NCBI RefSeq assembly: GCF_054482525.1
Contig: NZ_CM137006.1
DNA length: 64,000 nt
Direction: 5' to 3' (one strand)
Part shown: piece by piece, positions 821 through 24,712 of the stretch
Layout: every line of letters starts with the position of its first letter
Position numbering within the stretch: position 1 is the stretch's first letter
The notes under the pieces: model-generated
The model's database searches: none
Seen by the model: the letters and a program-made list of their open reading frames with translations, nothing else
Told to the model about the DNA's origin: nothing
Translations under genes and position numbers: made by a program

Positions 821-944
821 GATAGTCGAATGGTGGGGAAAAGTCACTCGAATTACGCCTAATTCCACCGACGTAGAGTTGCTTGCAAAGTAAGCTCTGA
901 AGATGTCATCAGGTTACAAAGTGAAATTGAGGATGCCTGAATAG

Positions 945-972
945 CAAAAAAGCGCCTTTAGGGCGCTTTTTT
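945..972 (-). terminator. Rho-independent terminator-like hairpin (AGCGCC-loop-GGCGCT flanked by A6/T5), distal copy
   Basis: GC stem with flanking A and T runs; part of a 53-bp direct repeat also present at 1098-1150. Confidence 0.5.
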
Positions 973-976
973 ACAT

Positions 977-1097
977 TGGTGGGTCGTGCAGGATGACTCG
1001 CTTCGCTCGCCCTTCGGGCCGTCGCCGCGAGCGGCTCCGTTGTTTCGCTGCGCTCAACTCGAACCTGCTGCAGGTTCGAATCTTTGAGTATCGCAGA
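977..1097 (-). repeat. tRNA-Lys 3'-end fragment (18 nt) plus associated ~100 bp repeat unit, copy A
   Basis: TGGTGGGTCGTGCAGGAT matches the 3' end of the adjacent tRNA-Lys genes, then diverges into GATGACTCGCTTCGCTCGCCCTTCGGGCCG, a sequence shared with copies B and C. Confidence 0.6.
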
Positions 1098-1101
1098 TAG
1101 C

Positions 1102-1128
1102 AAAAAAGCGCCTTTAGGGCGCTTTTTT
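1102..1128 (-). terminator. Rho-independent terminator of the lysT tRNA operon (proximal copy)
   Basis: AAAAAAGCGCCTTTAGGGCGCTTTTTT hairpin immediately 3' of the last tRNA on the minus strand. Confidence 0.6.
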
Positions 1129-1132
1129 ACAT

Positions 1133-1208
1133 TGGTGGGTCGTGCAGGATTCGAACCTGCGACCAATTGATTAAAAGTCAACTGCTCTACCAACTGAGCT
1201 AACGACCC
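1133..1208 (-). tRNA. lysQ: tRNA-Lys (anticodon UUU)
   Basis: 76-nt reverse complement matches canonical E. coli tRNA-Lys (GGGTCGTTAGCTCAGTTGGTAGAGCAGTTGACTTTTAATCAATTGGTCGCAGGTTCGAATCCTGCACGACCCACCA). Confidence 0.95.
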
Positions 1209-1241
1209 CTTGCGGGATTATGCTGCTTTAATCATTCAGGA

Positions 1242-1317
1242 TGGTGGGTCGTGCAGGATTCGAACCTGCGACCAATTGATTAAAAGTCAACTGCTCTACC
1301 AACTGAGCTAACGACCC
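1242..1317 (-). tRNA. lysZ: tRNA-Lys (UUU)
   Basis: Identical 76-nt tRNA-Lys sequence on minus strand. Confidence 0.95.
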
Positions 1318-1365
1318 ATACGGGTGTTACCTGAAAGATTTCTACTCGGAACCAATCTTTAAAAT

Positions 1366-1463
1366 TGGTGGGTCGTGCAGGATGACTCGCTTCGCTCGCC
1401 CTACGGGCCGTTGCTAGCGCAACGTTATCCTTCACGCTTAACATCTGAGTTTGATGTTAAAAT
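1366..1463 (-). repeat. tRNA-Lys 3'-end fragment plus associated repeat unit, copy B
   Basis: TGGTGGGTCGTGCAGGAT followed by GACTCGCTTCGCTCGCCCTACGGGCCGTTGCTAGCGCAACGTTATCCTTCACG, near-identical to copy C. Confidence 0.6.
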
Positions 1464-1539
1464 TGGTGGGTCGTGCAGGATTCGAACCTGCGACCAATTG
1501 ATTAAAAGTCAACTGCTCTACCAACTGAGCTAACGACCC
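1464..1539 (-). tRNA. lysY: tRNA-Lys (UUU)
   Basis: Identical 76-nt tRNA-Lys sequence. Confidence 0.95.
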
Positions 1540-1542
1540 GAG

Positions 1543-1618
1543 TGGTGGGTGATGACGGGATCGAACCGCCGACCCCCTCCTTGTAAGGGAGGTGCTCTCC
1601 CAGCTGAGCTAATCACCC
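1543..1618 (-). tRNA. valZ: tRNA-Val (UAC)
   Basis: Reverse complement matches E. coli tRNA-Val GGGTGATTAGCTCAGCTGGGAGAGCACCTCCCTTACAAGGAGGGGGTCGGCGGTTCGATCCCGTCATCACCCACCA. Confidence 0.95.
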
Positions 1619-1669
1619 GATACTGCGCTGGATACTACAAACTACTTCCACCGAACCCACCGTAATTAG

Positions 1670-1745
1670 TGGTGGGTCGTGCAGGATTCGAACCTGCGAC
1701 CAATTGATTAAAAGTCAACTGCTCTACCAACTGAGCTAACGACCC
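1670..1745 (-). tRNA. lysW: tRNA-Lys (UUU)
   Basis: Identical 76-nt tRNA-Lys sequence. Confidence 0.95.
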
Positions 1746-1747
1746 GG

Positions 1748-1823
1748 TGGTGGGTGATGACGGGATCGAACCGCCGACCCCCTCCTTGTAAGGGAGGTGC
1801 TCTCCCAGCTGAGCTAATCACCC
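1748..1823 (-). tRNA. valT: tRNA-Val (UAC)
   Basis: Identical 76-nt tRNA-Val sequence. Confidence 0.95.
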
Positions 1824-1858
1824 GATACTACGCTGGATACTACAACTAACTAGGTTAG

Positions 1859-1958
1859 TGGTGGGTCGTGCAGGATGACTCGACTTCGTCTCGCCCTTCG
1901 GGCCGTTGCTGACGCAACGTTATCCTTCACGTTTTACTACCGCGTCCACCTTAGCGAT
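1859..1958 (-). repeat. tRNA-Lys 3'-end fragment plus associated repeat unit, copy C
   Basis: TGGTGGGTCGTGCAGGAT followed by GACTCGACTTCGTCTCGCCCTTCGGGCCGTTGCTGACGCAACGTTATCCTTCACG. Confidence 0.6.
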
Positions 1959-2034
1959 TGGTGGGTCGTGCAGGATTCGAACCTGCGACCAATTGATTAA
2001 AAGTCAACTGCTCTACCAACTGAGCTAACGACCC
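1959..2034 (-). tRNA. lysT: tRNA-Lys (UUU), first gene of the operon
   Basis: Identical 76-nt tRNA-Lys sequence; most promoter-proximal position on the minus strand. Confidence 0.95.
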
Positions 2035-2198
2035 ACTTTTTCGTTGCTTTCGGTTTGTTTGATATCCCGTGGCAACGGCGGCATATATTACTGATTTCAG
2101 ACTTGAGCGCAACAAAAATTTCGATGTAGATCACTCAACTGCTTATGATTCGCACGACACGACCAGAAATAATGCGACTTCTGGTCGTGTGTTATGCA

Positions 2199-2990
2199 TT
2201 ACATCGCGTTAAGACGTTTTTGTGCCTGTTTAGCGCCATCAGTACCAGGGTATTTACTGATAACCTGCTGGTATACGGCTTTCGCTTTTGCGGTGTCACC
2301 TTTGTCCTGCATGATGACACCGACTTTAAACATCGCATCTGCAGCCTTTGGCGACTTCGGATAGTTTTTTACTACCGAAGCAAAATAGTACGCCGCATCA
2401 TCTTTTTTACCCTTGTTGTAGTTTAACTGACCCAGCCAATAATTGGCGTTTGGCAGGTAAGTTGAATCAGGGTAATTTTTGATGAAATTCTGAAATGCCA
2501 CCATTGCGTCATCCTGGCGGGATTTATCCTGCACCAGCGCAATTGCTGCATTGTAATCCGTGTTTGCATCGCCGCTTTTCACCGGCGCGCCAGCATTCGC
2601 AGTACCAGCATCAGCTGTCGGCGTCGTTGATGCCGCCGCACCGCTTTGATCACCGCTGGTTGATTGCGCCGCTGCACCACCGCTGCTGAGGCTGTCGATC
2701 TGCAACAGGATCTGCTTTTGCCGCTCCACGACCTGATTCAGTTGATACTGATTTTCCTGAATCTGACCGCGCAGGGAATCAATATCGGATTGATTATCAG
2801 AGAGTTGTTGCTGGAGTTGGGTTAAAAGCTGGCTGTGAGCATTTGAAATACGCTCAAGTTGAGTGACGCGGTCTTCGACCGAGCCTGAGCCGACACTACT
2901 GATTGGTGCCTGAGCAAAAGCGGCCCAGGGGGCCGCTATACCAACCAGTAACGACAGACTCAATAGTTGATGTCTGAAGTTACTGCTCAT
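2199..2990 (-). CDS. cpoB: Cell division coordinator CpoB (YbgF), TPR protein
   Basis: 263-aa ORF MSSNFRHQLLSLSLLVGIAAPWAAFA... with signal peptide, Gln-rich coiled coil and C-terminal TPR region; synteny after pal. Confidence 0.9.
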   Translation of the reverse strand: MSSNFRHQLLSLSLLVGIAAPWAAFAQAPISSVGSGSVEDRVTQLERISNAHSQLLTQLQQQLSDNQSDIDSLRGQIQENQYQLNQVVERQKQILLQIDSLSSGGAAAQSTSGDQSGAAASTTPTADAGTANAGAPVKSGDANTDYNAAIALVQDKSRQDDAMVAFQNFIKNYPDSTYLPNANYWLGQLNYNKGKKDDAAYYFASVVKNYPKSPKAADAMFKVGVIMQDKGDTAKAKAVYQQVISKYPGTDGAKQAQKRLNAM

Positions 2991-2999
2991 GCAATTCTC

Positions 3000-3545
<546 letters not shown>

Positions 3546-24005: not shown

Positions 24006-24712
24006 CAAATGCGCCTATAAGGCTCTCTTACCAGCCGCGCCCTAACAGGCGCACACGATCTGACATTTGCATCCAACTTCGTTACTTACGGCCCGTAAAC
24101 GGGCTGCCCGGATAGGGAATCGATAACTGCTCTCCCATTTTATCCTCTTCAAGCTGGTGCTTTATGTAATCCTGTATCTTCGCCGTGTTCTTACCCACCG
24201 TATCGACGTAGTACCCTCTGCACCAGAACTCCCTGTTCCTGTATTTGAATTTCAAATCACCAAACTGCTCGTAAAGCATCAGACTGCTTTTCCCTTTCAG
24301 ATATCCCATAAAGCCGGATACGCTCATTTTGGGCGGGATCTCCACAAGCATATGGATATGATCTGCACAGCATTCAGCTTCCAGAATCCGTACACTTTTC
24401 CACTCACACAGCTTTCTCAAAATACTGCCTATTGCTCTACGCTTCTCTCTGTAGAACACCTGTCTTCGGTATTTTGGCGCAAAAACTATGTGATATTTAC
24501 AGTTCCATCGGGTGTGCGCTAAGCTCTTTTCGTTCCCCATTGGGACCCCCTTTTGATTTCTTGTTTGACACTTGCAGTTGCCAGACCGCAAGGTGTTTTA
24601 ACAAATCAAAAGGGGTTTTAATAACTGGCTTAAAGCTGAAAGCTTTCCGGAACCCCCAGCCTAGCTGGGGGTTTTCTGTGCACAATAACTGCGCCTGGCA
24701 TCCCGCCAGGCG
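24006..24712 (-). mobile_element. IS200-like element (IS200/IS605 family), boundaries approximate
   Basis: Contains a Y1-transposase gene, a perfect palindrome AACCCCCAGCCTAGCTGGGGGTT about 120 bp upstream of tnpA and a 13-bp inverted repeat sequestering the tnpA start region, as in IS200. Confidence 0.6.
24082..24540 (-). CDS. tnpA: IS200 transposase TnpA (HUH Y1 transposase)
   Basis: 152 aa MGNEKSLAHTRWNCKYHIVFAPKYRRQVFY...HIHMLVEIPPK... with HuH motif and catalytic Tyr-containing C-terminus. Confidence 0.9.
   Translation of the reverse strand: MGNEKSLAHTRWNCKYHIVFAPKYRRQVFYREKRRAIGSILRKLCEWKSVRILEAECCADHIHMLVEIPPKMSVSGFMGYLKGKSSLMLYEQFGDLKFKYRNREFWCRGYYVDTVGKNTAKIQDYIKHQLEEDKMGEQLSIPYPGSPFTGRK

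Follow-up and report, generated by a model that had tools for sequence, protein, structure and literature searches.

The lysT tRNA operon in the window (the whole stretch of 64,000 nucleotides analysed here, from contig NZ_CM137006.1 of assembly GCF_054482525.1) raises the question of why an array of intact tRNA genes also carries repeat units built around a copied tRNA-Lys 3' end, and of what these units are. ARAGORN identified seven tRNA genes in this array and no others, every one on the minus strand, five for Lys(UUU) and two for Val(UAC), in agreement with an earlier reading made from the sequence alone, which had counted seven intact tRNAs. From the first gene of the operon to the final one, these genes are as follows.

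1959-2034, minus strand: lysT, tRNA-Lys(UUU), gene 1 of the operon (ARAGORN; Rfam tRNA model, 79.2 bits; orthologous position in K-12)
1748-1823, minus strand: valT, tRNA-Val(UAC) (ARAGORN)
1670-1745, minus strand: lysW, tRNA-Lys(UUU) (ARAGORN)
1543-1618, minus strand: valZ, tRNA-Val(UAC) (ARAGORN)
1464-1539, minus strand: lysY, tRNA-Lys(UUU) (ARAGORN)
1242-1317, minus strand: lysZ, tRNA-Lys(UUU) (ARAGORN)
1133-1208, minus strand: lysQ, tRNA-Lys(UUU), final gene of the operon (ARAGORN)

The lysT array is flanked by nadA and cpoB-pal-tolB in 5,407 of 5,426 E. coli genomes. The operon is expressed as a single transcript, and this precursor is resolved by RNase P with the help of RNase E (Agrawal et al. 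2014).

The 18-mer TGGTGGGTCGTGCAGGAT occurs eight times in this region, five times as the 3' end of a tRNA-Lys gene and three times elsewhere, at 977, 1366 and 1859. The latter three copies run on as GACTCG and the tRNA-Lys genes run on as TCGAAC. The earlier observation that three units carry an 18-nt tRNA-Lys 3'-end fragment was confirmed, with an 18/18 match to ATCCTGCACGACCCACCA in each, as was the presence of a sequence of approximately 80 bp common to all three units (repeat-family identities of 93% and 90%). The hairpin described as common to the units is identical in two of them (GCCCTTCGGGC at 1009-1019 and 1893-1903), but the middle unit carries a one-base variant, GCCCTACGGGC, at 1398-1408. 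Similarly, the units begin with the 18-mer on the strand shown, but the operon is read from the minus strand, and thus in the RNA AUCCUGCACGACCCACCA is the end of every unit and not its start. The units and the two empty slots are listed below, where TLR denotes the tRNA-linked repeats, RtT the Rfam family RF00391 and R1 a covariance model from related short units.

1859-1958, minus strand: short-type TLR/RtT unit in slot a, after lysT (RF00391, 60.6 bits; R1, 103.8 bits; fold z-score -2.2), with the 18-nt tRNA-Lys 3' copy at 1859-1876, the antisense arm CGUGAAGGAU at 1922-1931 and, on the basis of pair counts, the hairpins CGUUGC/GCAACG, GCCC/GGGC (1893-1903) and GAC/GUC
1619-1669, minus strand: empty slot b, the lysW-valZ spacer of 51 nt, equal to the 149-nt spacer of K-12 minus exactly one 98-nt unit
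1366-1463, minus strand: short-type TLR/RtT unit in slot c, after lysY (RF00391, 53.7 bits; R1, 91 bits; fold z-score -3.2), comprising the 18-nt copy (1366-1383), the GCCCUACGGGC hairpin (1398-1408) and the antisense arm (1427-1436)
1209-1241, minus strand: empty slot d, the lysZ-lysQ spacer of 33 nt, equal to the 132-nt spacer of K-12 minus exactly one 99-nt unit
977-1102, minus strand: long-type (full-length) TLR/RtT unit in slot e, between both terminators (RF00391, 51.6 bits; fold z-score -2.4), comprising the 18-nt copy (977-994), the 5' half of the sense T-arm (GCAGGUUCGA, 1059-1068) and the antisense T-arm (AUUCGAACCUGC, 1070-1081)

The units of slots a and c begin 0 nt past lysT and lysY, and the terminal unit lies after lysQ and a terminator. 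The two internal units are of a truncated short type that lacks the antisense/sense T-arm hairpin.

The terminal unit lies between two putative terminators, each of which is part of a direct repeat.

1097-1150, no strand assigned: 54-bp direct repeat, copy 1, terminator and genuine lysQ 3' end (100% identity)
941-994, no strand assigned: 54-bp direct repeat, copy 2, terminator and 18-nt fragment (100% identity)
1102-1128, minus strand: proximal operon-terminator palindrome, A6-GCGCC-loop-GGCGC-T6 (inverted-repeat arms)
946-972, minus strand: distal copy of the terminator palindrome (inverted repeat and 54-bp direct repeat)

The duplication of a segment holding the terminator and the tRNA fragment, previously given as 53 bp, is therefore real, with a length of 54 bp (941-994 identical to 1097-1150). 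Both palindromes show GCGCC-loop-GGCGC followed by T6, and neither was listed by a consensus terminator scanner, which is probably an artefact of stem extension absorbing the A6/T6 runs. In PMC4176162 this hairpin is taken as the Rho-independent terminator of the lysT operon.

A covariance-model scan of the units, a check proposed together with the earlier reading, identified RtT RNA (RF00391, 51.6-60.6 bits), and the tRNA model detected only the seven genes. All three units scored above the curated gathering score of 45 bits, with E-values ranging from 4e-11 to 7e-9. In a scan of the 64-kb window, the R1 model gave the two internal units scores of 104 and 91 bits and, beyond these, matched the terminal unit alone. 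Since the RtT E-values are this low and the R1 hits are confined to the units, these are not chance matches. The terminal unit aligns contiguously with RF00391 positions 1-130, with non-canonical pairs in the outer helix; the internal units match only approximately the 3' 70 positions of the model, and upstream tRNA sequence, set apart by a 44-nt insertion, fills the 5' half. In other strains, PGAP tags the orthologous terminal unit of the lysT operon as "RtT sRNA"; only this full-length unit is labelled, and the short internal units are left unannotated. The accompanying PGAP note, "processed from tyrT transcript", is wrong for the lysT locus.

The TLRs comprise 22 copies at ten K-12 loci, numbering one to five per locus, and the last 18-19 bp of each match the upstream tRNA or rRNA exactly; the family is traced to Egan & Landy 1978 and Rudd 1999, as summarised by Stenum et al. 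2021 (PMC8144298). The units in the window lie in a tRNA operon, downstream of tRNA genes, and all three end in an 18/18 match to the upstream tRNA-Lys 3' end. The five units of the K-12 lysT operon correspond to the stated maximum of "one to five". Thus, judged from the sequence by the definition of the family and by the K-12 count, the lysT-operon units are members of the published TLR family. They resemble the K-12 TLRs in their location downstream of a tRNA gene whose final 18 nt they repeat at their own 3' end and in the presence of several units per locus, and they differ in nothing essential, except that the window carries three of the five K-12 copies. The units are ordinary RtT/TLR members, from a family of structured spacer RNAs found behind tRNA genes in enteric bacteria, and little weight is given to them as a discovery because this family is curated in Rfam, annotated by PGAP and described since 1978/1999. 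The rttR, or RtT, element of the tyrT-tyrV operon, reportedly the work of Bosl and Kersten in 1991, shares with the lysT-operon units a homologous core (a CGUUGC hairpin, a GCCCGAAGGGC hairpin and a variable third hairpin) together with a host 3'-end copy and an antisense arm. The two differ in that the tyrT units score 133-137 bits and the lysT-operon units 52-61 bits, that the host-derived parts are Tyr-specific in rttR and Lys-specific in the lysT operon, and that the short internal units lack the T-arm hairpin and the lysT operon lacks a tpr-like ORF. The ORFs of at least 25 aa in this region all overlap tRNA genes or are unconserved, with no tpr-like ORF of the kind in tyrT among them, and the GGAUGAGAA start context is missing from the Lys units. 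The RtT text is absent from the current version of the CoCoNuT preprint. In addition, rrA, rrB and rrF are TLRs located between T1 and T2 of rrnA, rrnB and rrnD (PMC8144298). The terminal lysT-operon unit has the same layout, i.e. a gene end, a terminator, a TLR with an 18-nt copy of the gene 3' end and a second terminator; in contrast, the host in rrA, rrB and rrF is 5S rRNA and not a tRNA, and binding by Hfq and CsrA has been observed in vitro (PMC8144298).

The units are predicted to fold in a conserved manner. Single-sequence folds (z-scores from -2.2 to -3.2) regained the hairpins as well as the helix between the antisense arm and the fragment. Across 21 short units, the fraction of cells that pair was 94.9%, compared with 28-47% when the partners were slid. 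The covariation score on these units was 0.096, compared with 0.034 in shuffles, and 0 of 500 shuffles reached 0.096, in a test in which most base pairs are invariant and the structure tested came from the same sequences. Compensatory pairs were observed, with U-A in Lys units and G-C in Arg units, five pair types in hairpin 3 and, in the long units, a host T-stem pair that is C-G (Lys), G-C (Pro) or A-U (Tyr). The antisense arm is complementary to the host-specific 3' fragment, and this match is kept host by host. The antisense strand is about equal to the sense strand in folding stability; U-G wobbles point to the sense strand as the one that folds, and the direction of the operon agrees.

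Among the matches listed, the same core was observed in approximately 20 genera, behind Tyr, Lys, Arg and Pro tRNAs; where the host is a Tyr, Lys, Arg(ACG) or Pro(UGG) tRNA, the final 18-22 nt of the unit reproduce the 3' end of that same host. This survey was a scan for the 19-nt core, from which the matches listed with a matching upstream tRNA were used; in GC-rich non-enteric genomes the scan returns many chance matches (approximately 9,000 expected by our estimate). Dispersed repeats in Alcanivorax and Arsukibacterium resemble the core weakly, with scores of 15-25 bits that are inflated by locus selection. The distribution behind several hosts bears on two explanations. First, the units might be attL/attR-like scars of the insertion of an integrative element or prophage into tRNA-Lys genes, since att sites are classically recognised by a second copy of a tRNA 3' end downstream of the intact gene, and at tRNA att sites a direct repeat of the tRNA 3' end likewise flanks extra DNA beside an intact gene. 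However, the "insert" here is just 80-107 nt of structured RNA, with neither integrase nor cargo, and the same core is present after Tyr, Lys, Arg and Pro tRNAs; moreover, in the same 5,407 of 5,426 E. coli genomes nadA and cpoB are the immediate neighbours of the locus, and an integrase would not fit between them. As the core stands behind four to five tRNA species, each time with the 3' end of its own host, a past integration at lysT cannot account for it, and this explanation is effectively refuted. Searches with the terminal unit for carriage by phages or plasmids returned no genuine copies; the apparent plasmid matches were mislabelled chromosome fragments (multi-Mb or non-mobilizable records), and the apparent phage matches were unannotated records of 1.6-2 kb. 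Second, the units might be decayed tRNA-Lys pseudogenes, i.e. degenerate duplicate genes. Real pieces of tRNA-Lys are present, namely the last 18 nt of the tRNA in every unit, to which the terminal unit adds the T-arm piece GCAGGUUCGA. Nevertheless, the seven intact genes are all that ARAGORN and the Rfam tRNA model detect, remnants of the D-arm and anticodon arm are absent, no intermediates with such arms were seen in approximately 60 units, the conserved non-tRNA core is common to the units of other tRNA hosts, and the T-arm piece is preceded by a T-arm copy in antisense and not by tRNA 5' sequence, so that this origin is extremely improbable.

A further reading of the same distribution, which we regard as a long shot, is that the core is a two-hairpin module repeatedly installed in the T-loop of a host stable-RNA 3' fragment with sense and antisense copies. 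The hosts could then include Tyr, Lys, Arg-ACG, Arg-CCG and Pro tRNAs and 5S rRNA. If true, repeated installation would imply active copying of the host, for example by template switching where tRNA genes are strongly transcribed or by a small mobile element targeting T-loops, and the module might be kin to the dispersed repeats of the Alcanivorax / Arsukibacterium group.

Herein, we propose that the units are TLR/RtT structured spacers of the lysT operon that undergo tRNA-like 3' processing and also act as recombining repeats, and we consider this joint explanation highly probable. Each unit would be co-transcribed with the tRNAs, with its hairpin core closed by pairing of the antisense arm with the 18-nt tRNA-Lys 3' copy, including the CCA. 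By analogy with tRNA maturation, the tRNA-like 3' end might direct the 3'-maturation nucleases (RNase E, then exonucleases) to cut after the unit, and RNase P, cutting at the 5' end of the next tRNA, might then free the spacer to be discarded as a discrete piece. The antisense arm may keep the tRNA-derived fragment from mispairing with the 5' strands of neighbouring tRNAs; a host-specific arm thus offers a testable idea, in which a tRNA-like fragment is insulated and a tRNA-type 3'-processing signal is provided. At the DNA level, the 18-bp and 54-bp repeats do act as substrates for precise loss and duplication, each slot is filled or empty independently between strains, and the units are dispensable. 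Our best guess for the unit itself, again drawn by analogy, is a spacer that is transcribed with the tRNAs and cut out by their 3'-processing machinery. The K-12 annotation of rttR stops exactly at the CCA of the unit, and the 3' end of the rrnB TLR maps 3 nt past its repeat, for which recognition by RNase E has been proposed (PMC8144298). In the lysT operon, spacer probes detected essentially only precursors, which build up in RNase mutants, and few intermediates were seen in the wild type (Agrawal et al. 2014); the repeats go unmentioned in that report on lysT-operon processing.

Alternatively, the units might be trans-acting sRNAs freed from the tRNA precursor that regulate genes or titrate proteins. 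The structure of the units is conserved, RrA, RrB and RrF, likewise located between dual terminators, are bound by Hfq and CsrA in vitro (PMC8144298), and RtT homologues have been detected in Actinobacillus by Northern blot. Despite these observations, we consider such a role improbable: the one early claim, a role of rtT in the stringent response, was retracted, and the 19 tRNA-operon TLRs scored <0.01 for CsrA binding (PMC8144298). The probe results of Agrawal et al. (2014) also argue against this role, and a range of 0 to 5 copies between strains is hard to square with a dosage-sensitive regulator.

This range is one modest addition to what is known: the number of units per lysT operon varies from 0 to 5 between E. 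coli strains. In the alignment with the K-12 operon that had been suggested, K-12 carries five units and the window three, and some strains carry none. The number of terminal units ranges from 0 to 2 and that of tRNA-Lys genes from 3 to 5 per operon. Among 17 decoded loci, 13 distinct architectures were observed, including zero-unit forms and forms with two terminal units, and approximately 16 span classes were found among 59 sampled genomes. The sequence-only reading would have been refuted by a universal arrangement, invariant in copy number, but the architectures do vary between strains. Zero-unit strains exist on two different flank backgrounds, and therefore any role of the units is non-essential. 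This dispensability, the frequent gain and loss of units, 18-mer SNPs in some strains (ACACACCA, ACCTACCA and ATCTTGC), which show that exact identity with the tRNA is not strictly kept, and the lack of a known TLR function in the literature (PMC8144298) would all fit a neutral origin, in which unequal crossing-over duplicated the tRNA 3' end and its trailer, the copies are maintained solely by hitch-hiking and concerted evolution in a tandem array, and the RNA is unselected. Against this, the core and its architecture are conserved in approximately 20 genera and behind four to five host tRNAs among the matches listed, both the outer helix and hairpin 3 show compensatory changes, and the host-specific antisense arm stays complementary to the fragment, which a plain tandem duplication cannot create. 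A purely neutral origin, the most credible of the rivals, is rather unlikely.

The recombining-repeat component of the joint explanation is seen directly in the spacers. At all four internal slots, an empty slot equals an occupied slot minus one unit, base-exact at the 18-nt repeat. Thus, where recombination within the array or past insertion of an integrative element had been suggested as the source of the repeats, the former is supported by these exact indels, and the latter is contradicted by conservation of the core across tRNA hosts. With their 0 to 5 copies, the strains form a natural series in which any effect of TLRs could be tested. In E. coli, the lysT operon is a hotspot of structural change, even where the background is otherwise identical, and strains with identical 2.8-kb flanks have different architectures; this matters for comparisons of tRNA dosage and for the assembly of this repeat-rich region.

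The repeat units of the lysT operon are an already known element, since the family to which they belong, the tRNA-linked repeats (TLRs) or RtT, has been named and described in the literature. First, the layout was verified. Seven tRNA genes were identified in the operon of the window using ARAGORN, and a repeat finder located eight copies of the 18-mer TGGTGGGTCGTGCAGGAT, of which five belong to tRNA-Lys genes and the other three lie at 977, 1366 and 1859, together with approximately 80 bp common to the three units. The duplicated segment, given as 53 bp in the sequence-only reading, is a perfect 54-bp repeat (941-994 and 1097-1150). Because the operon lies on the minus strand, each unit comes after a tRNA-Lys in the RNA and carries AUCCUGCACGACCCACCA, i.e. 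the last two T-loop bases, the 3' strand of the T-stem, the acceptor 3' strand and CCA, at its end. Second, the three units scored 60.6, 53.7 and 51.6 bits with Rfam RF00391 (RtT RNA), all above the curated threshold of 45 bits. The terminal unit (977-1102) is a contiguous match to the entire model. The true match of the two internal units covers only about the 3' 70 positions, the remaining positions being filled by Infernal from the upstream tRNA over a 44-nt insertion, and these units are therefore a truncated short type. When the 64-kb window was searched with a model built from the short units, its hits were these three units and no others. In K-12 tyrT-tyrV, the RtT type locus, four units score 133-137 bits, each with the tRNA-Tyr 3' end as its terminus.

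These repeats were first seen in 1978 by Egan & Landy, catalogued in 1999 by Rudd and described as TLRs in Stenum et al. [quoted passage not shown] The same source gives TLRs 'no known function' and records that the claim of a role for rtT in the stringent response was retracted (PMC8144298). In other strains, the ortholog of the terminal unit bears the RefSeq/PGAP annotation 'RtT sRNA'. In five E. coli loci (L005-L008, L013), this label is on the full-length terminal unit only, and the short internal units are above the Rfam threshold too, yet carry no annotation; the accompanying note, which reads 'processed from tyrT transcript', is incorrect for the lysT operon.

The number of units varies among E. 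coli strains. K-12 has five, one behind every tRNA-Lys, and the window is without those after lysW and lysZ; the corresponding K-12 spacers, 149 and 132 nt long, become the empty spacers of the window (51 and 33 nt) once precisely one unit is taken away. Likewise, K-12 and a zero-unit strain differ to the base by one unit in all four internal slots. A flank-only query found one joined place, with at least 80% of the query covered, in 5,407 of 5,426 genomes, and in a spread sample of 59 genomes the span ranged between 3326 and 4271 bp, in approximately 16 classes. Architectures were decoded from one representative per span class, the window and K-12. Among the decoded representatives, each slot is present or absent independently, terminal units number 0, 1 or 2, and some operons have shrunk to K-V-K-V-K-K or K-K-K (K, tRNA-Lys; V, tRNA-Val). 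The units are dispensable. On the assumption that operons of equal span share one architecture, those of the sample carry zero (about 22%), one (12%), three (25%), four (24%) or five (17%) units. The exact arrangement of the window occurred once in this sample, in E. coli SCU-102 (H31; NZ_CP051753.1), which is 100% identical to the window across the tested 1.6 kb and 2.9 kb.

Although their 2.8-kb flanks are identical, L004 departs from L005 and L006 in the terminal unit, and L015 from L016 in tRNA content, and operons with zero units were found on flanks separated by 64 SNPs; therefore, rearrangement at the 18-bp, 54-bp and whole-tRNA repeats is faster than point mutation. The repeats described in the sequence-only reading were confirmed, and its interpretation stands in part: recombination within the tRNA array is supported, whereas the scar of an integrative element is effectively excluded, as is a tRNA pseudogene. 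Natural strains have lost tRNA genes from this operon, namely M24 (L015) and strain 472 (L010), both K-V-K-V-K-K, and IPCEC42 (L016), which is K-K-K with no Val genes; the larger deletion (L016 versus L015) looks recent, given the identical flanks. In E. coli TUM20902 (L013, 1007-1288), the terminal unit and terminator stand in two tandem copies, and in Klebsiella sp. and Pantoea sp. (L037, L111) in three, at 156-nt spacing; unequal crossing-over at the 54-bp repeat is expected to give such arrays. Two further changes may be real or may be assembly errors: the terminator arms after lysQ are homopolymer-expanded (A8 and T11) in SCU-152 (L005), and the antisense T-arm of the AMA1167 (L007) terminal unit lacks 8 bp, AGATTCGA.

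The species-level scan for the conserved core was polluted by chance hits, and only matches with a matching upstream tRNA were kept. [quoted passage not shown] A fifth host, tRNA-Arg(CCG), takes the family outside Enterobacterales; clear long-type units follow it in Marinobacterium lutimaris (L039, 8773-9024) and an Amphritea MAG (L110, 1856-1937), scoring 38-41 bits with the short-unit model and carrying a host-specific antisense arm, CUGGAGGGU, with a host match of 11 nt. The long type (Tyr and Pro units and the Lys terminal unit) is made up of, in order, the host T-arm in antisense, a sense T-arm interrupted within its loop (GGUUCGA / AUCC) by the core of about 65 nt, the acceptor 3' strand and CCA. 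The short type (Lys internal and Arg units) retains only the antisense arm, which ends in GGAU directly 5' of the core. The antisense arm is specific to each host, and its best pairing partner is the fragment derived from that host.

In the consensus folds, three hairpins are enclosed by an outer helix, which is formed by the arm and the tRNA-derived fragment or, in long units, by the reconstituted T-stem. Compensatory changes were seen: Lys units have U-A at an outer pair where Arg units have G-C, a T-stem pair is C-G (Lys), G-C (Pro) or A-U (Tyr), and hairpin 3 shows five pair types. In 21 short units, 94.9% of cells pair, compared with 28-47% with slid partners, and the covariation score is 0.096 versus 0.034 in shuffles (reached by 0 of 500); since few pairs vary and the tested sequences had themselves served to derive the structure, these statistics are supportive rather than decisive. 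Single-sequence folds gave z-scores of -2.2 to -3.2, the antisense strand folding similarly; U-G wobbles and operon direction identify the sense strand as the folded RNA. That the units are a neutral by-product of duplication is plausible in part, considering their dispensability and the SNPs inside the 18-mer in some strains, although cross-genus conservation and the compensatory changes weaken this explanation.

According to the literature, the lysT operon is one transcript resolved 3' to 5' by RNase P with the help of RNase E, and what spacer probes pick up in RNase mutants is mostly precursors. Read-through produces the rrnB TLR, which is located between terminators T1 and T2; it ends 3 nt past its repeat, and its authors attribute this end to RNase E recognition (PMC8144298). 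In K-12, rttR is annotated up to the CCA of the unit. We propose that the 18-mer might supply the spacer with a tRNA-type 3'-processing site, and that the antisense arm might sequester the 18-mer away from the 5' strands of neighbouring tRNAs. For TLRs of tRNA operons, action as a trans-acting sRNA finds no support. The A6-GCGCC-loop-GGCGC-T6 palindrome at 946-972 and 1102-1128, the operon terminator according to the literature, was not flagged by a consensus terminator scanner; being symmetric, it could act as a terminator for either direction of transcription.

A dispersed, partly tandem repeat of about 74 nt was observed in Alcanivorax sp. 24 (L042-L056; 19 places among the matches listed) and in Alishewanella, Arsukibacterium and Alkalimonas (L068, L101-L104, L125, L130). 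It carries AACGTTGC-NNN-GCGACGGCCCGAAGGGTGA, the TLR two-hairpin core, apparently with no linked tRNA. Its homology to this core is unproven, since the short-unit model gives it only 15-25 bits and a 19-nt pattern had been used to choose the loci. Active installation of the core into 3' fragments of host RNAs, with possible kinship to dispersed gammaproteobacterial repeats, is improbable. NZ_CP098226.1 (50 kb), listed as an E. coli plasmid, contains tRNA-Val, tRNA-Lys and a terminal unit at about 20289-20599 (H30, H100; 98% identity) and is probably a misassigned chromosomal fragment. Two other Rfam matches were observed in the window:

2961-3099, minus strand: CpoB/ybgF ICR thermometer (RF02782), 142 bits against a gathering score of 51, pal-cpoB intergenic, a known element
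24550-24673, minus strand: STnc490 Hfq-binding sRNA (RF01405), 146 bits against a gathering score of 56
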